Positions 678 to 19,550 of a DNA stretch of 42,047 nucleotides are shown here, in pieces. The translations under genes and the position numbers were made by a program. The number at the start of each line of letters is the position of its first letter. Within the stretch, counting starts at the first letter, position 1. Under the pieces are notes generated by a model. It ran no database searches, was not told the origin of the DNA, and worked only from the letters and a program-made list of their open reading frames with translations. The stretch comes from Frankiaceae bacterium (GTDB lineage: Bacteria; Actinomycetota; Actinomycetes; Mycobacteriales; SCTD01): positions 1 through 42,047 of the forward strand of contig JANPHZ010000005.1 in assembly GCA_031424715.1 (NCBI GenBank), written 5' to 3'.

Positions 678-2060
678 CTAGGCCGTCCCCCGCGAGACGT
701 CGATCATCGTCTGCCGGTCGACGACCTTGACCCGCTCGCGGACGGTGCCGTCGGGCAGCTCGCCGTACGCCGCTCCGAGCTCCTTCTCGTGGGCGTCGAG
801 GCGGTCCCAGCCCTCCCACGTCGTGTAGACGACGCCGCGGCTCTCGAGGAACTCCGTGACCGCCTCGAGCTGCGGCTCGGGGGCAGTCGGCAGGGAGGCG
901 AGATCCTCGAGCAGGCTGCCGACGGTCTCGATCGCGTCGCCCTTGGTGTGGCCGATCAGGCCGACCGGACCGCGCTTGACCCAGCCGTTGACGTAGAGGC
1001 CCGGCAGGTGCGCGCCGCTGATGTCGAGGACGCGGCCCTTGGCGTGCGGGACCACGTGGTTGCTGGAGTCCCACGGCAGGTCGACCAGCTCGCTGGAGCG
1101 GTAGCCCACGCAGCGGTAGACGGCCTGGACCGGCCAGTCGCGGACGACCCCGGTGCCGCGGACGTTGCCATCGCCGGTGAGCTCGGTGCGCTCGGTGCGG
1201 AAACCCTCGACCTTGCCGTCGCCGGTGACCTCGACGGGGCTCTCGAAGAAGTGCAGCCACAGTTTGCGCGGTCGCTCGCCGAGGCCGTGCTCGGCGGTGC
1301 GCATGGCGTAGCGCTCCAGCTCGCGTACGACGAGCTTGGTCTGGTTGTCGGAGTTGATCGCGGCGACGGAGCCGTCGTCGTACTCGATGTCCTCGGGGTT
1401 GACCAGGACCTCGACGTGGGGGGAGTGGTCGAGCTCGCGCAGCTCGAGTGGGGTGAACTTCGCCTGCGCCGGGCCGCGGCGCGCGAAGACGTGGACCTCC
1501 TCGACGGGCGAGGCCTTGAGGCCGTCGTAGATGTGAGCCGGGATCTCGGTCTTGAGCAGCTCGTCGGCGGTCTTCGACAACATGCGCGCGACGTCGAGGC
1601 CGACGTTGCCGGCGCCGATGACGGCGATGCTGCGGGCCTCGAGCGGCCACTCGCGCGACACGTCGGGGTGGCCGTCGAACCAGCTGACGAAGTCCGCGCC
1701 GCCGAAGCTGCCGGGCAGGTCGATGCCGGGGATGTCGAGGTCGCGGTCCTTCTCGGCGCCGGTGGTGAAGACGACGGCGTCGTAGTGGCGCTGGAGGTCC
1801 TCGAGCGTGATGTCCACGCCGTACTCCACGTTGCCGAACAGCCGGACCGTCTCGCGGCTCATGACCTGGCGCAACGCGGTGATGATGCCCTTGATCCGCG
1901 GGTGGTCGGGCGCGACGCCGTAGCGGATCAGGCCGTAGGGGGCGGGCAGCTTCTCGAACAGGTCGACGGTCGCGTCGGTCCCCGACTTGTGCAGGACGTC
2001 GGCGACGTAGACGCCGGCCGGACCAGCGCCGACGACGGCAACCCGAAGGGGCCGGTCCAC
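678..2060 (-). CDS. fprA: Ferredoxin-NADP+ reductase, adrenodoxin-reductase type (FprA-like)
   Basis: 460-aa ORF with an N-terminal dinucleotide fold VAVVGAGPAGVY and a second IAVIGAGNVGLDVARML motif. The GWVKRGPVGLIGHTKGDA region is typical of mycobacterial FprA / AdR-type reductases. Confidence 0.85.
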   Translation of the reverse strand: MDRPLRVAVVGAGPAGVYVADVLHKSGTDATVDLFEKLPAPYGLIRYGVAPDHPRIKGIITALRQVMSRETVRLFGNVEYGVDITLEDLQRHYDAVVFTTGAEKDRDLDIPGIDLPGSFGGADFVSWFDGHPDVSREWPLEARSIAVIGAGNVGLDVARMLSKTADELLKTEIPAHIYDGLKASPVEEVHVFARRGPAQAKFTPLELRELDHSPHVEVLVNPEDIEYDDGSVAAINSDNQTKLVVRELERYAMRTAEHGLGERPRKLWLHFFESPVEVTGDGKVEGFRTERTELTGDGNVRGTGVVRDWPVQAVYRCVGYRSSELVDLPWDSSNHVVPHAKGRVLDISGAHLPGLYVNGWVKRGPVGLIGHTKGDAIETVGSLLEDLASLPTAPEPQLEAVTEFLESRGVVYTTWEGWDRLDAHEKELGAAYGELPDGTVRERVKVVDRQTMIDVSRGTA

Positions 2061-2186
2061 TGTTGTCCTCCCGGGCAGACGTGGCAGAGCAAGGGCTCCA
2101 GTATCGCCGAGTAATCCGCCGCCCGCCTGTGGGCTGGCTCACGCCCGCCGCCCGTCGCTCGGCCCGGGGGTGGCACGCTGACCGGC

Positions 2187-2738
2187 ATGAGCATCGACCA
2201 GCCGGCCGCCGCCGAGGCCGTGCGCGCCCTGCTGGTCGCGCTCGGCCAGGACCTGACGAACGAGTCTCTCGCGCAGACACCCCAGCGGGTGGCGGCGGCC
2301 TACGCCGAGCTGTTGGCGCCGCACTCGTTCGACCTGACGACCTTCCCCAACGACGAGGGCTATGACGAGCTGGTCGTTGCCCGCGACATCCCCTTCTCGT
2401 CGCTGTGTGAGCACCACCTGTTGCCGTTCGTCGGTGTCGCGCACGTCGCCTACATGCCCGGTGACCGGATCCTCGGGCTCTCCAAGCTGGCCCGCGTCGT
2501 CGAGCTGTTCGCCCGCCGCCTGCAGGTCCAGGAGCGGCTGACCAAGCAGGTGGCCACGTGGTTGCAGGACCACGTGCAGCCGCGCGGTGTCGGCGTCGTC
2601 CTCGAGGCCGAGCACATGTGCATGAGCATCCGGGGAGTGCGGGCGACCGGCGCGAAGACGGTCACCTCCGCGCTCTACGGCTCGTTGCGCAACGACCCCC
2701 GGACCCGCCAGGAGTTCCTGTCGCTGACCGCTCGGTAG
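2187..2738 (+). CDS. folE: GTP cyclohydrolase I
   Basis: 183-aa ORF with the FolE signature SLCEHHLLPF and HMCMSIRGV. Size and overall pattern are typical. Confidence 0.9.
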   Translation: MSIDQPAAAEAVRALLVALGQDLTNESLAQTPQRVAAAYAELLAPHSFDLTTFPNDEGYDELVVARDIPFSSLCEHHLLPFVGVAHVAYMPGDRILGLSKLARVVELFARRLQVQERLTKQVATWLQDHVQPRGVGVVLEAEHMCMSIRGVRATGAKTVTSALYGSLRNDPRTRQEFLSLTAR

Positions 2739-2748
2739 GGCGGCCGGC

Positions 2749-3015
2749 TCAGTAGCCGTGCAGATGCAGCAGGTCGGCGTCGTGGTCAAGGTCGCTGACG
2801 ATGCGCTGCGGCGGCGTCCAGCCCAGGTCCATCAGCGCCCGGTAGAGCGCCGAGCGGGCCGCGATGACCTGTTCGTCGGCGGCCAGGCTGCGGGTCAGCA
2901 GGTCGCGGTCGCCGACCTCGTGCCGGAGCCTGGCCTGCAGCCCGCTGCTGCGGACCACCGCGGCGTGGTAGGCCGCCATCAGCGGGAGCAGCGGGTCGTC
3001 CCAATCCGGATACAT
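2749..3015 (-). CDS. Hypothetical protein (88 aa)
   Basis: Internal ATG at 3015 is preceded by GAAAGGAG with 4-nt spacing. The longer 3087 start has no RBS. I recognised no family. Confidence 0.45.
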   Translation of the reverse strand: MYPDWDDPLLPLMAAYHAAVVRSSGLQARLRHEVGDRDLLTRSLAADEQVIAARSALYRALMDLGWTPPQRIVSDLDHDADLLHLHGY

Positions 3016-3119
3016 CGGACTCCTTTCGCCCCCTGTTGTGCTCATCGGTCGCGCGATCTGCCCGCTGAATGGCCGAAGGGGTGACACCGACCTGTCCCGA
3101 AAGATGACTCTTTAGGACC

Positions 3120-5450
3120 ATGCCGCTGAGCGACTTCATGATCGACAGTGAGGGGGTGATCGATGCTGACCAGACGGGTAGGTCCACCTGCCGCGAGCAA
3201 CCCCGTGGTGCCGGAGCGGGCATCGTTCTCTCGCAGGACGCCGCCGAGGCGACCCGGCGGGTGTTGCAGCTGCTCGTGCACCGGCTGGACATGGACCTGT
3301 GCTTGCTGAGCCTGCGGGTCGGCGACGACTACGTCGTGCTCGACGCCTTCGATCCGCTGTTCGGGCTGCAGCCCGGCGTGCTGGGCGCGTGGTCGGACGC
3401 GCTCTGCTCGGCGATGGCGGACGGCACCGGACCCCGGGTCGCCCCTGACCTGCGCGACGTACCGGTCTACAGGCGGCTGGCCGAGCGCTCGGGCCTGCCG
3501 GTCAGGGCCTACGCCGGCACACCGCTGTTCGACGCCGACGGCGAGCTGCTCGGCTCCCTGTGCGCCTTTGGCGTCAAGCCGCGTGGACCCGTGCTGCACG
3601 ACCAGTACGCCCTGCTCAGCACCTTCGGGCTGGTCCTGGCCCACATGCTCGACCGCGAGCTCACGGCCCAGCAGGCGCGTACGGCGGAGACGGCCGCCAT
3701 CACGCAGGCCCAGACGGACACCCTGACCGGCGCCCTCAACCGGCGCGGCTGGCAGGGCGTGCTGCAGGAGACCGACCGGTGGTGCCGGGTCGAGGGCCAG
3801 CAGGCAACCGTCTTCGTCATCGACGTCGACGAGCTCAAGGCGACCAACGACCGTGAGGGTCACGACGCCGGAGACGCGCTCCTGCAGCGCGCTGCCTCGG
3901 CCCTCACCGACACGGCCATCCTGTGCTCGCTCCGGCGCGACGAGCTGGGCCTTCCCCCCTCACCGACGTCGTACGCCGTCGCCCGCACGGGGGGTGACGA
4001 GTTCGCCGTGCTGCTCACCCGGTTCGGGCCGCTGGAGGCCCCGCACATCGCGCAGGAGCTGCGTCGCGCGCTGACCGACGCCGGGGTCAGCGCCAGCCTG
4101 GGTTACGCGATGCGCCACCCGGTCCGTGGGCTGGCGCTCGCCTGCCGCGACGCCGACCAGCTGATGCTGGCCGAGAAGCGCCACCGGCAGAGCCTGCGCA
4201 GCATCCCGGCTCCGCGCAACGGGCGTGCCCGCGCGCACCGAGCCGGCTCGATGCTGACGGCGGCCGCGCTGCAGGCCGAACGCGACGAGGCGCCGGCCCA
4301 GGCGGTGGGACGGCTGCTCAGCCGCGTGCGCGAGCTCTTCGGCCTCGAGACGGCCTTTGTCAGCCGGTTTGACGACGACCAGCAGACCTTCACCCACATC
4401 AACACCTCGGTGCCGTTGCCCATCGCCGTCGGCGACCAGCGCCCGCTGACGATCTCGCTGTGCCAGCACGTGCTGGCCGGTCGCCTGCCAACGGTGATCA
4501 CCGACGCGACCACGCACCCGGTGAGCGCCGACATCGACGTGGTGCGGGCCGGGCTCGTCCGGGCCTACCTCAGCGTCCCGGTGAACCTGCCGGACGGTTC
4601 GCTGTACGGCACCCTGTGCTGCCTGTCCGCCTCCCGGCGCCCGGACATCACCGAGCAGGCCGCGGCGGCGCTCGCCTTCGCCGCCGAGCAGGTCGGCGAG
4701 CTGCTCGGCCGGCAGCAGAAAGAGAGCGCGGGTCGGGTGACCGCGACTGCCCGCCTGGATGACCTGCTGGCCACGGACGGGCTACGCGTCGCCCTGCAGC
4801 CGGTGGTGGACCTGCGTACCGGCCAGCCGGTCGGTGCTGAGGCGCTGGCCCGCTTCGCCGACGGCCGTACGCCGGACGTGTGGTTCGACGAAGCGGCCAT
4901 GGCCGATCAGTCGGAACGGCTGGAGGTAGCAGCTTTCGACGCCGCCCTCGCGCACGTCACGGCTCGGGACACCTTCTTGGCCGTCAACCTCTCGCCGGCC
5001 GTGCTGATGTCGAAAGCGCTGCGAGCCCGGCTGGACCGGGTCGTCGCCGAGGATCCCCAGCGGTTGCACGGGCTGGTCATCGAGCTGACCGAGCACGAGC
5101 AGGTCAGCGACTACGGCGCGCTCGCTGCCGTGATGGCGCCGTACCGCGCGCATGGTCTGCGGCTGTCTGTCGATGACACCGGAGCCGGTCACAGCAGCCT
5201 GAGTCACGTGCTGCAGCTGCGTCCGGACATGATGAAGCTCGACCGGCAGCTCATCACGGCGCTGGACCGCGACCCGATCCGGCGCGCTCTCGTCAAGAGC
5301 TTGGGACTGTTCTGCGCCGACACGCAGGTCGACCTCATCGCCGAGGGGGTCGAGACCGCGCAAGAGGCCGAGGCGCTCCGCCGCATCGGCGTGCACCTGG
5401 GTCAGGGCTTCCACCTCGGACGCCCCGCCATACCGGTTCGGCCCGCCTGA
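3120..5450 (+). CDS. Multidomain c-di-GMP turnover protein: GAF - GGDEF - GAF-like - EAL
   Basis: 776 aa. The GGDEF active-site motif is intact (ARTGGDEFAV) and the EAL motif is present (GAEALARF). Downstream EAL-domain blocks are present (ELTEHE, SVDDTGAGHSSL, IAEGVET). The N-terminal and central sensor regions are GAF-like. Confidence 0.85.
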   Translation: MPLSDFMIDSEGVIDADQTGRSTCREQPRGAGAGIVLSQDAAEATRRVLQLLVHRLDMDLCLLSLRVGDDYVVLDAFDPLFGLQPGVLGAWSDALCSAMADGTGPRVAPDLRDVPVYRRLAERSGLPVRAYAGTPLFDADGELLGSLCAFGVKPRGPVLHDQYALLSTFGLVLAHMLDRELTAQQARTAETAAITQAQTDTLTGALNRRGWQGVLQETDRWCRVEGQQATVFVIDVDELKATNDREGHDAGDALLQRAASALTDTAILCSLRRDELGLPPSPTSYAVARTGGDEFAVLLTRFGPLEAPHIAQELRRALTDAGVSASLGYAMRHPVRGLALACRDADQLMLAEKRHRQSLRSIPAPRNGRARAHRAGSMLTAAALQAERDEAPAQAVGRLLSRVRELFGLETAFVSRFDDDQQTFTHINTSVPLPIAVGDQRPLTISLCQHVLAGRLPTVITDATTHPVSADIDVVRAGLVRAYLSVPVNLPDGSLYGTLCCLSASRRPDITEQAAAALAFAAEQVGELLGRQQKESAGRVTATARLDDLLATDGLRVALQPVVDLRTGQPVGAEALARFADGRTPDVWFDEAAMADQSERLEVAAFDAALAHVTARDTFLAVNLSPAVLMSKALRARLDRVVAEDPQRLHGLVIELTEHEQVSDYGALAAVMAPYRAHGLRLSVDDTGAGHSSLSHVLQLRPDMMKLDRQLITALDRDPIRRALVKSLGLFCADTQVDLIAEGVETAQEAEALRRIGVHLGQGFHLGRPAIPVRPA

Positions 5451-5478: not shown

Positions 5479-6264
5479 TCAAGCGATGCGACCGACCGCG
5501 TAGGTGGACGAGTAGATCCGGCGCAGCTGGACGTTCTTGCCGGCGCGCGGCGCGTCCCACATGTAGCCGTTACCGGCGTAGATGCCGACGTGGCCGTTGG
5601 AGTCCATGAAGACCAGGTCTCCGACGCGCACGTCGGCGCGGGCGATCGGGCGGGCCATGTCGCGCTGGGCGGCCGCGTTGTGCGGGAGGTTGCGCCCGAA
5701 CTGCGCGAACACGTAGCGGGTGAAGCCGCTGCAGTCGAAGGAGTTCGGGCCGACGGCGCCGTAGACGTAGGGCTTGCCGTTGTGCCGGGCCGCCTCGTCG
5801 ACGATGCGCCGACCGAACTCCTCGACGTCGATGATGTCGGTCTGGCTGGTGGCCGTACTGCGGTAGGCGGATCCGCGGTAGTAGGCCCGGATGCGCTGGT
5901 CGCGCTTGACCGTGAGCGAGCTGCGGCCCAGGCCCTCGGAGTCGGTGCCGGCCTTGGCGATCGTGCGCCAGCCGCGACCCTCGGGGATCTGGATCTCGAC
6001 GATGCCGTTGCGGACGTACTCACCGTCGCTGGTCAGGCGCACCGTGACCGGCGCCTGGCCCGGCGGAATGGGCCGGGCGGGAGCGGCGACCCGCACCGCA
6101 GCGGTGGTGGGTTCGGCAGCGTGGGCGGGGGTGGTGGCGGCCAGCGGGATCAGGAAACCGCCGACGGCCGAGGCGGCGGCCACCCGGCCGGGCACCTGGG
6201 ACGGACGGGCGTGCTTGGGCTGGTGGGCGGGCAGGGCATGGCGAGCCCGCTTGGGGTTGCGCAT
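5479..6264 (-). CDS. NlpC/P60 (C40) peptidoglycan endopeptidase, secreted
   Basis: The C-terminal domain has the catalytic Cys context DCSGFTRYVF and HVGIY. The N-terminus is signal-like (VGGFLIPLAATTPAHA). I chose the start at ATG 6264 (MRNPKRA...); the longer track start at 6417 would run through the riboswitch-like leader. Confidence 0.85.
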   Translation of the reverse strand: MRNPKRARHALPAHQPKHARPSQVPGRVAAASAVGGFLIPLAATTPAHAAEPTTAAVRVAAPARPIPPGQAPVTVRLTSDGEYVRNGIVEIQIPEGRGWRTIAKAGTDSEGLGRSSLTVKRDQRIRAYYRGSAYRSTATSQTDIIDVEEFGRRIVDEAARHNGKPYVYGAVGPNSFDCSGFTRYVFAQFGRNLPHNAAAQRDMARPIARADVRVGDLVFMDSNGHVGIYAGNGYMWDAPRAGKNVQLRRIYSSTYAVGRIA

Positions 6265-6271
6265 GACGGTC

Positions 6272-6492
6272 GAGACCTCTCGTGCGCCTGCGGGGTGAGC
6301 TGTCGGGCTCGGGCGGAGAGTGCCCGGCAGCCGGTGGTCCGGCTGCTTAGCCCCGAGGCCGTCCTGGTTGCGGACCGGCCGTGGAGAGGTGGTTCCCCCG
6401 TTCCCGCCCAGGGACATGGGAGCGCCTGTCAGGGACCAGGGGCGGGACTCGGCGTCTGGTCGGCGCGGTTCGGCTTCCAGTCTGCGCGATGA
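6272..6492 (-). promoter_or_regulatory. ydaO/yuaA-type cyclic-di-AMP riboswitch candidate in the NlpC/P60 leader
   Basis: The minus-strand leader contains ACGGGGGAACCAC (plus 6389-6401) and CGGGGCUAAGC. Its 3' block is CCCGAGCCCGACAGCUCACCCCGCAGGCG (plus 6285-6313). This matches my recollection of the conserved ydaO 3' block (CCGAAUCCGACAGCUAACCUCGUAAGCG). It ends about 15 nt before the RBS/ATG. Boundaries are approximate. Confidence 0.65.
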
Positions 6493-15180: not shown

Positions 15181-15186
15181 AGGAGG

Positions 15187-15260
15187 TGCGCCGCCAGGGA
15201 CTCGAACCCCGGACCCGCTGATTAAGAGTCAGCTGCTCTAACCAACTGAGCTAGCGGCGC
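15187..15260 (-). tRNA. tRNA-Lys (anticodon CUU)
   Basis: The minus strand reads GCGCCGCTAGCTCAGTTGGTTAGAGCAGCTGACTCTTAATCAGCGGGTCCGGGGTTCGAGTCCCTGGCGGCGCA. It folds by hand into a full cloverleaf: 7-bp acceptor stem, D stem GCTC/GAGC, anticodon stem GCTGA/TCAGC with loop CTCTTAA, and T loop TTCGAGT. CCA is not encoded. Confidence 0.95.
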
Positions 15261-15484: not shown

Positions 15485-15703
15485 ATGACCACGACCACTC
15501 TCGCCCCGCACACCTTCACGGCCGCAGACCGTTGCGACCGCTGTGGCGCGCAGGCCTTCGTCCGCGCGGTCCTCACGGCGGGTGAGCTGCTCTTCTGCGC
15601 ACACCACGGCCGTGAGTACGGCGACCTGCTCGCCTCGCGTGCCCTCGTCATCGAGGACGCCAGCGAGACCATCAACACCAAGCCGAGCCCCGCCGCCTAC
15701 TAG
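15485..15703 (+). CDS. Small conserved-looking CxxC...CxHH protein (72 aa; possibly DUF7455-like)
   Basis: ATG 15485 is preceded by AGGAGGA. The sequence is MTTTTLAPHTFTAADRCDRCGAQAFVRAVLTAGELLFCAHHGREYG..., with a putative metal-binding Cys/His set. Confidence 0.65.
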   Translation: MTTTTLAPHTFTAADRCDRCGAQAFVRAVLTAGELLFCAHHGREYGDLLASRALVIEDASETINTKPSPAAY

Positions 15704-15707
15704 CCGG

Positions 15708-16043
15708 TCAGGTCCGCAGGCCCTCGGCCCGTCGGGCGACCTGCAGCAGCGCGTCGTACTCCTGCGCGTGCACCTCGGCGAGCTGCTCCCACGCCGTCCG
15801 CTTGGCCCGCCGCTCGCGCGCCTCCAGATCACCGCTGCCGACCGTCCCGGTCACCGGGCCTCGGCGCACCGGCGGGTCGGTCGGCGTCATGGACACCGTC
15901 TTGACCGGGGCGACCCGCTTGCGGACCGGCTTCTCCGGCGCCGTCAGACAGGCCCGGCACGTCGTGGCTTCTCCGTCGTACTCCTCGACCGACTTCACCT
16001 TGCGGCAGGACTCGCAACGACGCCAGGAGCTCACCCCCCCCAC
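15708..16043 (-). CDS. Hypothetical zinc-ribbon-like protein (~108-111 aa)
   Basis: Contains WRRCESCRKVKSVEEYDGEATTCRACL (CxxC...CxxC) and then a basic/helical tail. Start is GTG 16043 or 16034. The track start at 16304 would overlap the sigma-factor gene and reads Arg/Pro-rich. Confidence 0.5.
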   Translation of the reverse strand: MGGVSSWRRCESCRKVKSVEEYDGEATTCRACLTAPEKPVRKRVAPVKTVSMTPTDPPVRRGPVTGTVGSGDLEARERRAKRTAWEQLAEVHAQEYDALLQVARRAEGLRT

Positions 16044-16066: not shown

Positions 16067-16240
16067 TCAGAAGGGGAGGGGCGCCCAGACGCACACGCCG
16101 TCGAAGGGGCCGTCCGGATCGGCGCTGCCCCCGACGCACACGACGTGCGTGGTCGGCTCCGAGCCAGCGGACGCAGGTCCGGCACTCGCCACCCCGAGCG
16201 CGAGGACGGCGAGCAGCAGGGCAGCGAGGCGGCGGGTCAT
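16067..16240 (-). CDS. Unlisted 57-aa secreted peptide, translationally coupled to the ECF sigma gene
   Basis: Hand translation gives MTRRLAALLLAVLALGVASAGPASAGSEPTTHVVCVGGSADPDGPFDGVCVWAPLPF. Its ATG overlaps the sigma stop codon (ATGA at 16237-16240). It has a Sec-type signal peptide, two Cys in the mature part and very high GC3. It falls below the ORF-track size cutoff. Confidence 0.55.
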   Translation of the reverse strand: MTRRLAALLLAVLALGVASAGPASAGSEPTTHVVCVGGSADPDGPFDGVCVWAPLPF

Positions 16241-17310
16241 CGGGTCTCTCCGGTGCGGCAGGCCAGCAGGGGGTTGGTGGGGAACCGAGCGCAGTCGTAG
16301 TCATTGGTGCGTACGCCGACCTCGCGTACGCCGACCGGGCCGGCGTTGACCGGCGTGCGGACGTAGAGGTAGGTCCGGGCCTTCGGCGAGCAGTCGCTCC
16401 CGCCAGCGCCGGCGCCCGCCGCGGTCACCCCGCAGGTGCGCGCGAGCGGCGCCAACGCGCTGCGGGCTGGTGATGCGGGAGGCGCCGCGGTGCGATCTAC
16501 GGCCTGAGCCAGCGCTGTCCCGGCCGGCCGCAGCGCACGGGGCTGGGTCACCTGGGTGACCTCCGCGGCGGTGGTCTGCGTGGGGCGAGACAGTGCGGGA
16601 TCGGACGTCGGCGGCTGGCCTGGCAGGAGCATCAGCCCGCCCAGAGCGGCGACCCCGATCGCGGCGACGCTCAGCGCCGACCCCTTTGTCGCCGCCCGGT
16701 GCAGCGAGGCGAGCGCCGAGAGCCCGTGCAGCCCGGCCCAGGGCGCGAGCAGGGCCAGCCCGGCGTGCGGCAGGGTGCCGCCGCGCGCGGCGTACTCCTG
16801 GCGCAGGGCCTTGCGGGCCCGCATCAACACCGAGCGCACGGCCGGCTCGGTCATCCCGAAGCGCAGGCCGATCTCGTCGTACGACGCGCCCTCGACCTCG
16901 CGGGCCCACAGCACGGCGGCCTGCCGGGGGATGAGGGCGTCGAGGGCGTCCAAGGCGGTGCGGGCCTCGTCGCGGGCAACCACGACATCGGCGGTGTCGC
17001 GCTGGCGACGGTCGCCCTCGGGGACCTCGGAGACGGTGACCGTGCGGCCACGGACCCGCAACCGGTCGAGCACGAGGCGGCTGGTCACCACGTGGCACCA
17101 GGCGGCCAGCTCGTCCTCCGTCGCCAGTCGCTGGCTGCAGGCACGGAGCAGCGCCTCCTGCACCAGCTCCTCGGCCTCGTGCAGGTCACCGAGCCGGCGC
17201 GCGGCGAAGCGCTGCAACCGGGGGCGCAGGCGTAGGACGGCAGCCTCGAAGTCGAGCGGTTCGTCCTGGATGAGATGCAGGGCCGTCACGTTGCTCCTCC
17301 GATGGGGCAT
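16237..17310 (-). CDS. ECF (group 4) sigma-70 factor with a fused C-terminal TM helix and Cys-rich extracytoplasmic tail
   Basis: Region 2 (LHEAEELVQEALLRA) and region 4 (ASYDEIGLRFGMTEPAVRSVLMRARKALRQEY) occupy the first ~175 aa. A hydrophobic helix ALSVAAIGVAALGGLMLL follows. The ~120-aa Ala/Pro/Thr-rich tail ends in a 4-Cys segment (CGVTAAG...SDCSP...YDCARFPTNPLLAC). An alternative start is GTG 17289, which has GGAGGA 5 nt upstream. Confidence 0.8.
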   Translation of the reverse strand: MPHRRSNVTALHLIQDEPLDFEAAVLRLRPRLQRFAARRLGDLHEAEELVQEALLRACSQRLATEDELAAWCHVVTSRLVLDRLRVRGRTVTVSEVPEGDRRQRDTADVVVARDEARTALDALDALIPRQAAVLWAREVEGASYDEIGLRFGMTEPAVRSVLMRARKALRQEYAARGGTLPHAGLALLAPWAGLHGLSALASLHRAATKGSALSVAAIGVAALGGLMLLPGQPPTSDPALSRPTQTTAAEVTQVTQPRALRPAGTALAQAVDRTAAPPASPARSALAPLARTCGVTAAGAGAGGSDCSPKARTYLYVRTPVNAGPVGVREVGVRTNDYDCARFPTNPLLACRTGETR

Positions 17311-17318
17311 GCGTACCA

Positions 17319-17354
17319 GAAGGCCCGACCTCCGGACAGGGAGGTCGGGCCTTC
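17319..17354 (-). terminator. 15-bp hairpin between the small peptide gene and the sigma gene (terminator/attenuator candidate)
   Basis: GAAGGCCCGACCTCC (17319-17333) pairs with GGAGGTCGGGCCTTC (17340-17354), with a 6-nt loop. It lies 14 nt after the peptide stop codon on the minus strand. Confidence 0.55.
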
Positions 17355-17368
17355 GGCGCTGTCGGCGA

Positions 17369-17530
17369 CTAGGCCGGCGGGGCCACGCAGTTGGTGCCGT
17401 TGGTCGGGGCGGCGGTGCCGTTGACCGTGACGTTGGTCGTCAGGCAGGCCGAGGCGGCCATCGCGGGCGCTGCAGTGAGCCCGGTCAGGGCAACAGCGAG
17501 GGCAGAAACGGCGAGCAGCTTGCGAACCAC
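17369..17530 (-). CDS. 53-aa secreted two-cysteine peptide
   Basis: GTG 17530 lies 5 nt after GGAGG. The sequence is VVRKLLAVSALAVALTGLTAAPAMA|ASACLTTNVTVNGTAAPTNGTNCVAPPA. It has a Sec signal with an AxA site and a mature peptide of ~28 aa with 2 Cys. The track lists a longer 110-aa version whose N-terminal extension is Arg/Pro-rich and overlaps the upstream gene. Confidence 0.6.
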   Translation of the reverse strand: MVRKLLAVSALAVALTGLTAAPAMAASACLTTNVTVNGTAAPTNGTNCVAPPA

Positions 17531-17612
17531 GAGGGCCTCCGAGGGTGCGTGGGCGGCCGGTGTGCCGCCCTCACCCCCTTCAACGGGGGAAGGCTGGAAA
17601 CCTCGCGCGGAG

Positions 17613-19550
17613 TCAGGCAACAACCACCAGGACGGCGCCGGCCTCGACCTGACTGCCCGACTCGATGCGCACCTCGGTGACGGTCCCGTCGACCGCCGCA
17701 CGCACCGGGTGCTCCATCTTCATGGCCTCGAGGACGACCAGGACGTCACCGGCTTGCACGGCCGCTCCGACCTCGGCCGTGACCCTGACCACCGTGCCGG
17801 GCATCGGAGCGGCCAGCGAGCCGGCGGCCGCGCCCGTGCCCGGCTCCGGGAAGCGCGGGGTCTCGACCAGGACGCTGGACCCGAGGGGGCTGTCGACGTA
17901 GGCCGTATCGCCGACCTGGTGGACGTCCACCTGTCGTCGTACGCCGTCGACCTCCAGGTCGACCCTGTCGGCGGTGACCGACCACAGCCGCACGTCGACC
18001 GGTTCGCCACCGACCTGGACGACCAAACCGGTGCGGCGGAACGCATAGCCCACCTCGAGCTCGCCGTACGACGTGCGCTGCAGGGCGCTCGGGACGCTGC
18101 GCCAACCGCTCGGCAGTCCCGGCTGCGTGGACGCCGCTGCGCGCCGGGCTGCTGCCCCGGCCAGGGCTGCCGCGATCGCGTGCATGCGCTGGTCGGCCAG
18201 GAGCGGAGCGCCGATCTCGGCCGGGTCAACGCGGTCGAGGTAGCCGGTGTCGACCTCGCCCGCGAGCCACTCCGGCGAGCGCAGCACCCGCACGAGCAGA
18301 TCGCGGTTGGTCGTGACGCCGTGGATCCTGCTGCGCTGCAGGACCTCCGCGAGCCGGGCGCTCGCCGCCGCACGGGTGTCGGCGTGCACGATCACCTTGG
18401 CCAGCATGGCGTCGTAGTGCGTGCCGATGACCGAGCCGGTCTCCACCGCGCTGTCGACTCGCACGCCGTCGGGGACGTCGAAGCGCGCCAGGGTGCCGGT
18501 CGCCGGGAGGTAGCCGGCGGGGACGTCCTCGGCGTAGAGCCGGGCCTCGATGGCGTGTCCGGTCATGCTCGGCTCGAGGGCGGCAGCGGGCAGCGGATCC
18601 CCCTGCGCCACAGCGATCTGCAGCGCCACCAGGTCCAGCCCGGTGATGAACTCGGTGACGGGGTGCTCGACTTGCAGCCGAGTGTTCATCTCGAGGAAGG
18701 CGGGCTCGCCGTCGGCGCTGACGACGAACTCGACGGTGCCTGCTCCGCGGTAACTGACCGCTCGAGCGGCCGCGACCGAGGCCTCGCAAAGCCGCTGGCG
18801 CAGGGCGGCGTCGACGACCGGTGAGGGCGCCTCCTCGATGACCTTCTGGTGCCGGCGCTGCAGCGAGCAGTCGCGCTCGAACAGCGCGACCACGTTGTCG
18901 TGGTCGTCGGCGAACACCTGCACCTCGATGTGCTTGGGCTGGTCGAGGTAGCGCTCGAGGAAGACGGTGCCGTTGCCGAAGGCCGCTTCGGCCTCCCGGC
19001 GGGCCCCGTGCACGGCTTCGACCAGCTCGGCCTCGGTGCGCACGATCCGCATGCCTCGGCCGCCACCGCCGTACGACGCCTTGACCAGCACCGGGTAGCC
19101 GATCCGCTCGGCGACCGACAGCGCCGTCATCGGGTCGACCTCGCCACCGGCGAGCACGGGCACGCCGGCGGCTGCCATCAGCTCCTTCGCCGCGAGCTTG
19201 GAGCCCATCGCCTCGACCGCCTCGGGTGGCGGGCCGATCCAGGTCAGCCCGGCCGCGATCACGGCCCGAGCGAAGGACGCGTCCTCGGACAGGAACCCGT
19301 AGCCGGGGTGGATCGCGTCGGCACCGGTGCGAGCTGCGGCCGCGAGGATCAGGTCGCCGCGCAGGTAGGTGTCCGCTGGGGCAGACCCCGGCAGGCGTAC
19401 GGCGCCGTCGGCCTCGTGGGCGAACGGCGCATCGGCGTCTGCGTCGGAGAAGACGGCGACGGTGGCGATCCCGAGGTCGCGGCAGGTACGGAAGACCCGA
19501 CGGGCGATCTCGCCGCGGTTGGCCACCAGAATGCTTCCGATACGGCTCAC
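17613..19550 (-). CDS. Acyl-CoA carboxylase alpha subunit (biotin carboxylase + BCCP), methylcrotonyl-CoA carboxylase-like
   Basis: The biotin carboxylase N-terminus is ILVANRGEIARRV and an ATP-grasp core follows. The C-terminal biotinyl motif is VLEAMKMEH. The start is ambiguous (GTG 19550, 19559 or 19577). It is adjacent to the carboxyltransferase and acyl-CoA dehydrogenase genes. Confidence 0.9.
   Translation of the reverse strand: MSRIGSILVANRGEIARRVFRTCRDLGIATVAVFSDADADAPFAHEADGAVRLPGSAPADTYLRGDLILAAAARTGADAIHPGYGFLSEDASFARAVIAAGLTWIGPPPEAVEAMGSKLAAKELMAAAGVPVLAGGEVDPMTALSVAERIGYPVLVKASYGGGGRGMRIVRTEAELVEAVHGARREAEAAFGNGTVFLERYLDQPKHIEVQVFADDHDNVVALFERDCSLQRRHQKVIEEAPSPVVDAALRQRLCEASVAAARAVSYRGAGTVEFVVSADGEPAFLEMNTRLQVEHPVTEFITGLDLVALQIAVAQGDPLPAAALEPSMTGHAIEARLYAEDVPAGYLPATGTLARFDVPDGVRVDSAVETGSVIGTHYDAMLAKVIVHADTRAAASARLAEVLQRSRIHGVTTNRDLLVRVLRSPEWLAGEVDTGYLDRVDPAEIGAPLLADQRMHAIAAALAGAAARRAAASTQPGLPSGWRSVPSALQRTSYGELEVGYAFRRTGLVVQVGGEPVDVRLWSVTADRVDLEVDGVRRQVDVHQVGDTAYVDSPLGSSVLVETPRFPEPGTGAAAGSLAAPMPGTVVRVTAEVGAAVQAGDVLVVLEAMKMEHPVRAAVDGTVTEVRIESGSQVEAGAVLVVVA

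Follow-up and report, generated by a model that had tools for sequence, protein, structure and literature searches.

Extracytoplasmic function (ECF) sigma factors that are fused to their own membrane anchor are known but barely characterized. Those of the actinobacterial groups ECF48, ECF52, and ECF53, together with SCO4117 of Streptomyces coelicolor, consist of an ECF core followed by a C-terminal extension with about one transmembrane (TM) helix and a Pro-rich outer part, and proteolytic release and positive autoregulation have been proposed for them (PMC8999054, PMC5826349, and the supplement of 10.1101/2019.12.11.873521). IutY of Pseudomonas putida combines an N-terminal ECF sigma factor and a C-terminal membrane-spanning sensor part in one polypeptide and has been shown to be activated by regulated proteolysis, carried out by Prc and then RseP (PMC8999054). 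A sigma factor of similar build is encoded in the DNA analyzed here, a stretch of 42,047 nucleotides from a Frankiaceae bacterium (assembly GCA_031424715.1, contig JANPHZ010000005.1, positions 1 to 42,047) that is referred to below as the window. Positions 16067 to 17612 of its minus strand hold, in the order of reading, a predicted promoter, a 53-aa peptide gene, a hairpin, the ECF sigma gene, and a 57-aa mini-protein gene. All of the features that an initial annotation had described here occur on that strand where it placed them.

RseB of Escherichia coli is a secreted protein, encoded in the sigma operon, that binds the outer domain of RseA and guards it against the first cleavage. In Streptomyces, BldN, whose anti-sigma factor is the membrane protein RsbN, drives the small Sec-secreted chaplins and rodlins, and the chaplins have two conserved Cys residues.

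The sigma factor of the window appears to belong to a new family of membrane-anchored ECF sigma factors, which is set apart from the named ECF groups by comparison with the descriptions of those groups. Judged from sequence, what distinguishes it is the combination of no recognizable anti-sigma domain, a unique four-Cys outer domain, and an almost always coupled secreted mini-protein. The reading put forward here, to which we assign a probability of roughly 0.55, is that of a one-component, membrane-tethered ECF sigma family in which each sigma factor has a co-translated secreted mini-protein, with a mechanism proposed from architecture and precedent. The arrangement of sigma factor, mini-protein, and peptide points to an envelope signaling module of an undescribed kind. 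The main features of the locus are as follows.

17577-17612, minus strand: predicted sigma-dependent, autoregulatory ECF-type promoter, with a -35-like element, CGCGAGGTT, at 17599-17607 and a -10-like element, CGTTGA, at 17580-17585
17541-17578, minus strand: 5' leader stem-loop before the ribosome-binding site (RBS) of the upstream peptide gene (-29.4 kcal/mol; z only -1.87)
17369-17530, minus strand: upstream 53-aa pre-peptide with a GTG start, a GGAGG RBS at 17536-17540, and a Sec-type signal peptide
17319-17354, minus strand: GC-rich intercistronic hairpin with a perfect 15-bp stem, between the peptide and sigma genes
16237-17289, minus strand: C-terminally membrane-anchored ECF sigma factor, 350 aa when read from a GTG; the open reading frame (ORF) reaches an ATG at 17310 (357 aa)
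16067-16240, minus strand: downstream 57-aa pre-protein, termed the mini-protein, with an ATGA overlap with the sigma stop codon and a GGAGAG RBS in the 3' end of the sigma gene

The sigma factor and its outer domain

The length of 357 aa first reported for the sigma factor is that of the frame from its ATG, but the likely start is the GTG at 17289, which gives 350 aa; a GGAGG lies 6 nt upstream of this GTG, and the closest homologues start with MTALHL. The protein was divided as follows, with AlphaFold2 (AF2) confidence given as the predicted local distance difference test (pLDDT).

17044-17238, minus strand: sigma-70 region 2, about residues 18 to 82 (PF04542, E = 1.7e-10; AF2 pLDDT >90)
16798-16953, minus strand: sigma-70 region 4, about residues 113 to 164 (PF08281, E = 3.4e-11; AF2 pLDDT >90)
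16738-16785, minus strand: juxtamembrane motif RGGTLPxxGLxxLAPW, residues 169 to 184, the most conserved part of the extension among 116 homologues
16618-16680, minus strand: TM helix, residues 204 to 224, the only one in the protein (Kyte-Doolittle 19-residue mean, 2.1)
16438-16617, minus strand: Ala/Pro/Thr-rich extracytoplasmic linker, residues 225 to 284, variable, unalignable among homologues, and modeled as disordered (AF2 pLDDT <50)
16240-16437, minus strand: four-Cys, beta-rich outer domain, residues 285 to 350, with C286, C300, C333, and C344

Sigma-70 regions 2 and 4, already recognized in the initial annotation, are thus present as PF04542 and PF08281, and the protein as a whole exceeds the cut-off of TIGR02937 (61.4 bits against 42.9). 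Foldseek matches of the sigma core included SigL, SigH, AlgU, SigW, and SigK, as well as the RseA/sigmaE and RsbN-BldN structures. No NCBIfam equivalog reaches its cut-off with the window sigma factor, the best giving 92.7 bits against a required 130.

A search of 5.8 billion proteins returned 538 homologues, and most of the 120 listed are 346 to 408 aa long and align over 93 to 100% of the query at 47 to 70% identity. Because full-length alignment recurs among homologues, the fused architecture is not a frameshift artifact; the possibility raised earlier that the tail reflects an assembly frameshift fusing two genes is contradicted by the conservation of the full-length extension in independent assemblies. 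The sigma core is highly conserved in alignments of both 20 and 116 homologues. In a closely related metagenome-assembled genome (MAG; P0007/P0138, on a contig of 239 kb), the sigma gene is annotated with a product of 251 aa whose frame is lost at the TM helix, although the 64-aa mini-protein gene is intact. Either the assembly contains a frameshift here, or the sigma factor is naturally truncated and might be constitutively active.

In a collection of species-representative genomes, the family was found only in MAGs of uncultured Frankiales, Frankiaceae, and Mycobacteriales from sediments and soils, and outside these only generic ECF sigma factors with approximately 30% identity were recovered. 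The window's own sequence is present in freshwater-sediment metagenomes. The pair of sigma and mini-protein genes occurs in three unrelated neighborhoods.

Carboxylase neighborhood (window, L001, and L002): pair flanked by an acyl-CoA carboxylase gene and a DUF7455 gene
Two-component neighborhood (L003): sigma operon directly after a pair of response regulator and histidine kinase genes
PDZ-Lon/moaE neighborhood (L004 to L007): pair between a PDZ-Lon protease gene and moaE

Within the juxtamembrane motif, which directly follows region 4, R169, G170, G171, P174, G177, L178, A182, and P183 are invariant in the 116 homologues, and AF2 places helices there at low confidence (pLDDT, 56 to 69). The RGGTLP...LAPW segment may make an autoinhibitory contact or be recognized by a protease. 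Residues 176 to 196 reach a Kyte-Doolittle value of only 1.45 and are followed by a basic loop, and a basic cytoplasmic stretch (family consensus, RLRxAATR) precedes the TM helix. The single TM helix, the Ala/Pro/Thr-rich tail, and the four cysteines at its end had been noted before and are borne out by hydropathy and composition. The predicted topology, with the N terminus inside, one TM helix, and the outer domain outside, is compatible with release of the sigma factor by regulated intramembrane proteolysis.

In the outer domain, C300, C333, and C344 are invariant and C286 is conserved in at least 90% of the 116 homologues. A profile of this domain matched only 46 of 1.84 billion representative proteins, and the matches inspected were pieces or variants of the window's sigma family, apart from two giant repeat proteins. 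A stand-alone anti-sigma factor carrying the four-Cys domain was therefore rejected as a candidate. One match, a 210-aa protein, has no detectable sigma domain and may be a fragment. The giant proteins, P0181 (2842 aa) and P0198 (2533 aa), match the middle of the four-Cys profile 11 to 13 times, but weakly and only in part; P0198 is built of Ig-like surface-protein repeats, and P0181 has only weak fibronectin-type matches. The four-Cys domain may be a cut-down Ig-like beta module, or these matches may be compositional noise.

Comparison with described sigma factor groups

As in the ECF48, ECF52, and ECF53 groups, no separate anti-sigma gene was found in the neighborhood of the window's sigma gene, in agreement with the initial annotation. 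A zinc-finger anti-sigma domain of the ZAS type, placed ahead of the TM helix, defines those groups, whereas the window protein has none: it gave no match to PF13490 (zf-HC2), has no Cys or His between region 4 and the TM helix (no Cys in residues 165 to 203, no Cys/His zinc motif in the juxtamembrane motif, and no Cys in the family consensus), and was on this account not placed in ECF48, ECF52, or ECF53. Further differences are the extracytoplasmic carbohydrate-binding module of ECF52, where the window tail has no Pfam domain or Foldseek match; the reported promoter motif of ECF53, which is not that of the window family; and the conserved mini-protein at the +1 position, which is not described for any of the three groups. 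The supplement of the ECF classification lists no group with a CGTTG or GCGAGG promoter motif.

The ECF287 group resembles the window sigma factor in being actinobacterial, in having no anti-sigma gene, and in carrying Cys residues in a C-terminal extension of unknown function. Its extension is approximately 80 aa long with no TM helix reported, whereas that of the window protein is approximately 180 aa long and includes one. ECF287 proteins also have two Cys in region 4 and MerR/TetR and alpha/beta-hydrolase neighbors, whereas region 4 of the window sigma factor lacks Cys and its gene has other neighbors and a secreted mini-protein at +1. Membership was rejected on extension length, TM helix, region 4 Cys, and neighbors.

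IutY comes from a proteobacterium, where it acts together with a TonB-dependent receptor in cell-surface signaling under iron starvation; only the sigma core is a shared domain, and the window locus has no receptor gene. With BldN, the window sigma factor would share the trait of an actinobacterial ECF sigma factor driving small Sec-secreted proteins with two Cys. BldN, in contrast, is not membrane fused, and the window peptides are not hydrophobic amyloid formers; neither matched the chaplin or rodlin models, the rodlin E value of 0.2 being noise.

A co-translated secreted mini-protein

The gene directly after the sigma gene encodes a signal peptide with a predicted cleavage site after ASA25 and a mature part of 32 aa with two Cys (VCV..x14..CVW.PLP). 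The signal peptides of both small proteins of the locus were judged by sequence features, namely, a basic N terminus, a hydrophobic core, and an AxA site. Neither has a lipobox (L-x-x-C) at the end of the signal peptide, the first Cys lying 4 to 10 residues past the AxA site. No genes for modification enzymes of the kind that act on ribosomally synthesized and posttranslationally modified peptides were found in the loci of either one.

A scripted check covered 58 loci, comprising the window and the usable orthologous loci with a complete sigma 3' end. The mini-protein ORF was present in 54, with a 4-nt overlap between its start codon and the sigma stop codon (ATGA or GTGA) in 50; in the four exceptions, either the frame is evidently disturbed or the sigma reading frame is atypical. 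Each of seven loci fetched via homologues likewise contains a gene of 54 to 62 aa with a 4-nt overlap with the sigma stop codon. An alignment of 43 mini-proteins (25 to 75% identity) shows signal peptides ending in (A)PALA and two invariant Cys with a spacing of 10 to 16 residues, both with hydrophobic neighbors and often in the form VCV...G.CVW.PLP. The retention of the 4-nt overlap in 50 of the 58 loci, across all three neighborhoods, is a pattern of stoichiometric partner proteins. Genes for ECF anti-sigma factors usually occupy the +1 position, where the mini-protein gene sits here (PMC7826278). Both the mini-protein and the outer domain of the sigma factor have an even number of conserved Cys, and both are predicted to be extracytoplasmic.

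The mini-protein could instead be a mere co-expressed secreted product, such as an envelope or surface factor or an antimicrobial peptide, with the outer domain sensing something else alone. It is a small protein with little conservation in its mature sequence outside the two Cys and their hydrophobic flanks; moreover, ECF regulons commonly include small secreted proteins, as does that of BldN with its chaplins and rodlins. The gene for a simple output could, however, sit anywhere, as the upstream peptide gene does (see below), and the overlap so widely kept makes this explanation a rather unlikely one.

GC-rich DNA yields many spurious ORFs, and one could suppose that the small genes are chance ORFs of a GC-rich genome and the sigma extension an assembly artifact. 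This is scarcely credible given the signal peptide and Cys pair conserved across the 43 aligned mini-proteins in spite of their divergence, an upstream peptide conserved in 10 clusters, and a sigma extension that recurs at full length. Absence of conservation of the small ORFs in other loci had been named at the outset as grounds for giving up the idea of a signaling unit; both proved to be conserved genes. The list of ORFs that accompanied the sequence misrepresents both, as had been pointed out, with 17369-17530 listed as a 110-aa frame (17369-17701) and the 57-aa gene falling under the default cut-off of 60 aa. Genes of fewer than 60 aa that are missed or mis-extended in annotation can be integral to regulatory modules.

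The initial annotation could assign the two peptides to no known family, and this still holds: neither has a Pfam or NCBIfam match, MucB_RseB included, all database members of the mini-protein family are hypothetical proteins with no Pfam domain, and the ten clusters of the upstream peptide have no Pfam domain or name. A paralogous relationship between the two was rejected, the mature parts scoring 0 to 5 bits against each other; similarity between them in tblastn and full-length hidden Markov model (HMM) comparisons is due to the signal peptides.

The predicted promoter and the upstream peptide

Alignment of the regions 5' of orthologous sigma genes brought out an ECF-type motif, CGCGAGG(T/A)T(T/C)-N12-(C)CGTTG(A), present 67 to 80 nt before the sigma start codon in 45 of 56 loci. 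These 45 sigma-upstream sites, all from outside the window's clade, were used to build a promoter matrix. The matrix is very specific, with only 70 of approximately 1.0 million scanned positions scoring at least 11, most of them the sigma promoters themselves. In the window, the site scores 24.2, compared with 10.0 for the next match and a maximum of 15.2 in 20 shuffles; the spacing of its elements is the same as in the orthologues, and no second strong copy of the motif was found there. The site follows immediately on the biotin carboxylase stop codon (17613-17615), 46 nt ahead of the upstream peptide start, a placement shared with L001 (score, 28.3), L002 (18.8), and L003 (23.7). A scan for sigma-70-type promoters found nothing, and such consensus scans capture actinobacterial promoters poorly.

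The 53-aa product of the first gene has a predicted cleavage site after AMA25 that leaves a mature sequence of 28 aa, ASACLTTNVTVNGTAAPTNGTNCVAPPA, with 18 residues between its two Cys. Homologues fall into ten clusters, all with a signal peptide and the motif C(L/V)TTxVxVNGTxxPTNGT(N/T)C, and the mature sequence is very highly conserved among them. The three N-x-T triplets (NVT, NGT, and NGT) are conserved across the family; they may be structural, or the threonines may be modified.

Of the loci compared, the window, L001, and L002 are the only ones in which the upstream peptide gene adjoins a sigma gene. Another peptide homologue, P0149, is encoded on a contig equal in length to that of the sigma factor P0004, which is 67% identical to the window's. 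Unlinked copies are found after a DrrAB-like ABC transporter (L087 and L088), by a GH113 gene (L090), and by a nucleotidyl-transferase gene (L091 and L092). Over the whole of each unlinked locus, the promoter matrix scores highest at a position 41 to 47 nt upstream of the peptide start, with scores of 14.2 and 20.4 at L087 and L089 (two contigs of one locus) and 11.3, 24.5, and 20.6 at the separate loci L090 to L092, where approximately 0.001 matches per 80-nt stretch are expected by chance. Because a sigma-type promoter precedes both the window copy and the unlinked copies, the peptide is a predicted target of the sigma factor and its family a predicted member of the sigma family's regulon. 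A promoter motif this clean makes the regulon computable, and it already ties the sigma factor to a second secreted-peptide family.

At L087 (positions 1222-3159; also at L088), the peptide gene follows the DrrA/DrrB-like pair on the same strand after 76 nt and has its own sigma-type promoter. This adjacency hints at export or immunity, or it may be coincidence.

In L003 (= L008), positions 3786-4000, the peptide gene has decayed to an RBS and 14 codons of the signal sequence (LEELLAVSALTAPV and then a stop), located between the promoter and the sigma gene. This remnant indicates that the arrangement with the peptide between promoter and sigma gene is ancestral to the clade. The bracketing of the sigma gene by two peptide genes, on which the initial annotation had centered, therefore holds in part: the downstream mini-protein is a near-constant partner, whereas the upstream peptide is linked only in the window's lineage. 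The symmetric bracketing is lineage specific, since the upstream peptide family is rare and also occurs unlinked to any sigma gene.

The upstream peptide might, rather than being an output, close an autocrine or quorum-type circuit in which it is the ligand of the outer domain, with the mini-protein as co-receptor, and triggers release of the sigma factor. Its gene stands under a sigma-type promoter in linked and unlinked copies and comes first in the operon, ahead of the hairpin, and the product is predicted to be secreted with a mature sequence of very high conservation. If true, a membrane-tethered sigma factor would form the basis of a loop resembling quorum sensing, for which no ECF precedent is described. 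The peptide family, however, comprises 10 clusters compared with more than 500 sigma homologues and is absent from most sigma loci, so that it cannot be the general ligand of the sigma family, and in L003 the peptide gene is decayed while the sigma and mini-protein genes are intact. Such a circuit is accordingly quite improbable.

Intercistronic and leader hairpins

The 15-bp hairpin that the initial annotation had placed between the peptide and sigma genes was reproduced by folding computation, with a free energy of -38.9 kcal/mol and a z of -5.45, and none of 200 shuffles was as stable. It is a candidate partial terminator or processing/stability element. It is kept in L001 and L002 with one compensatory pair. 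L003 has a hairpin of different sequence in the same place, despite its decayed peptide gene, and also keeps the promoter and the leader hairpin; the intercistronic hairpin is therefore maintained for the sake of the sigma gene and not only as a terminator for the peptide gene. The distance from the hairpin to the sigma start is only 8 nt for the ATG and 29 nt for the GTG. With so short a gap and no second promoter motif, the sigma gene of the window's lineage would have to be expressed by read-through or through processing of the peptide transcript. Promoter, peptide gene, hairpin, sigma gene, and mini-protein gene are predicted to form one transcription unit in the window, because the sole strong promoter match lies 5' of the first peptide gene and the gap from hairpin to sigma start is too short to accommodate a promoter. 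The earlier suggestion of a self-contained unit is upheld to the extent that all four elements fall within this predicted unit.

Were the hairpin a full terminator, the peptide and sigma genes would be independent and the sigma gene would be read from another, unrecognized promoter. The hairpin is very stable, stand-alone peptide genes are also followed by strong hairpins, and a promoter of this kind could escape consensus scans, given how poorly these perform on actinobacterial DNA. The 8 to 29 nt left before the sigma starts hold no second copy of the promoter motif, however, and L003 keeps the order of promoter, hairpin, and sigma gene without a functional peptide gene, so that full termination is a decidedly remote prospect.

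Leader hairpins like the one before the RBS of the upstream peptide gene also stand before the RBS of unlinked peptide genes and before orthologous sigma genes. In L004 to L061, a conserved stem-loop of the 5' untranslated region (GTCGGG...CCCAGCCCCCGAC) is found approximately 45 nt before the sigma start and directly before the GGAAGAGG RBS (for example, L009, positions 2083-2125). Its 7-bp helix, which was named manually, is 83.7% paired and has 25 double-change cells compared with 8.7 in shuffles (0 of 500 reach this value), and the loop sequence CCCAG is itself conserved. The stem-loop could stabilize the mRNA or regulate. RNAalifold gave no structure on the orthologue leaders, for alignment reasons, and an Rfam search of the sigma locus gave no match.

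Proposed mechanism

In the proposed mechanism, the anchor would hold the sigma factor inactive at the membrane. The disulfide-bonded outer domain, in a 1:1 complex with the mini-protein, would act as sensor or guard, the mini-protein playing a part like that of RseB on RseA. A signal would lead to cleavage of the outer part and then to intramembrane cleavage, releasing the sigma core, and proteolytic activation of this kind has been shown for IutY and proposed for ECF48, ECF52, ECF53, and SCO4117 (PMC8999054, PMC5826349). The free sigma factor would switch on its own promoter in a positive feedback and, in the window's lineage, would thereby produce the upstream 28-aa peptide as its first and probably most abundant secreted output. 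The intercistronic hairpin would keep the synthesis of the sigma factor and the mini-protein below that of the peptide.

The likeness to the RpoE-RseA-RseB system is one of function only, the guard role of RseB being the role proposed for the mini-protein. RseB differs in its far greater size and its distinct fold, and RseA, which carries a cytoplasmic anti-sigma domain, is not fused to the sigma factor.

Several points weigh against this one-component reading. Binding of the mini-protein to the outer domain is proposed by analogy, and recognition of the motif by this sigma factor is deduced from where the motif stands. The cytoplasmic stretch of approximately 35 residues between region 4 and the TM helix contains no recognizable anti-sigma domain. 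The outer domain is modeled at moderate confidence (AF2 pLDDT, 70 to 93 in the full-length model and 66 when modeled alone), and a Foldseek search of it against the PDB gave no structural match, with a best E value of 7. No protease gene is linked throughout, the PDZ-Lon gene being near the sigma gene in some lineages only and not in the window. The intercistronic hairpin has no U-tract, and with no T-run present, a consensus scan calls no terminator. The sequence itself was found in DNA metagenome runs only.

If the proposal is right, the window family suggests a control logic in which a protein of approximately 30 residues serves as guard or co-sensor. The regulation and outputs of the module are testable in a heterologous actinobacterial host, and the family offers a handle on signaling in Frankiales-like actinobacteria that cannot yet be grown.

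Neighboring genes and other features

Immediately 3' of the mini-protein gene, 15708-16034 (minus strand) encodes a 108-aa protein with a zinc-ribbon-like N terminus (CxxC-x17-CxxC), which showed no anti-sigma domain, only a sub-threshold Pfam match, and no family assignment. It was rejected as a hidden anti-sigma factor because it lacks such a domain and a TM helix and is not syntenic in distant loci. A DUF7455 gene (15485-15703, plus strand) is convergent to it, and the pair is also found near the sigma module in L001 and L002, with an inserted gene for an AMP-binding enzyme between the pair and the module. Just past the DUF7455 gene lies a tRNA-Lys (CTT) gene (15185-15260, minus strand).

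In L004 to L007, a conserved cytoplasmic protein of 115 to 136 aa (MEHVVFFPAxDGSPAFRRV...SLGFFA) is encoded divergently from the sigma gene, and behind it are genes for a PDZ-Lon_C protease and a HAMP-PAS histidine kinase. The divergent gene was rejected as a part of the module, its product being cytoplasmic and without a Pfam domain and the gene being absent beside the window's sigma gene. The PDZ-Lon_C protease of these loci could be a candidate site-1 protease.

Elsewhere in the window, a cyclic di-AMP (c-di-AMP; ydaO-type) riboswitch was identified at 6270-6431 on the minus strand, with a score of 41.1 bits compared with an Rfam threshold of 38. It lies inside the 5' end of a listed 312-aa ORF (5479-6417, minus strand), the true start of which is probably 3' of the riboswitch.

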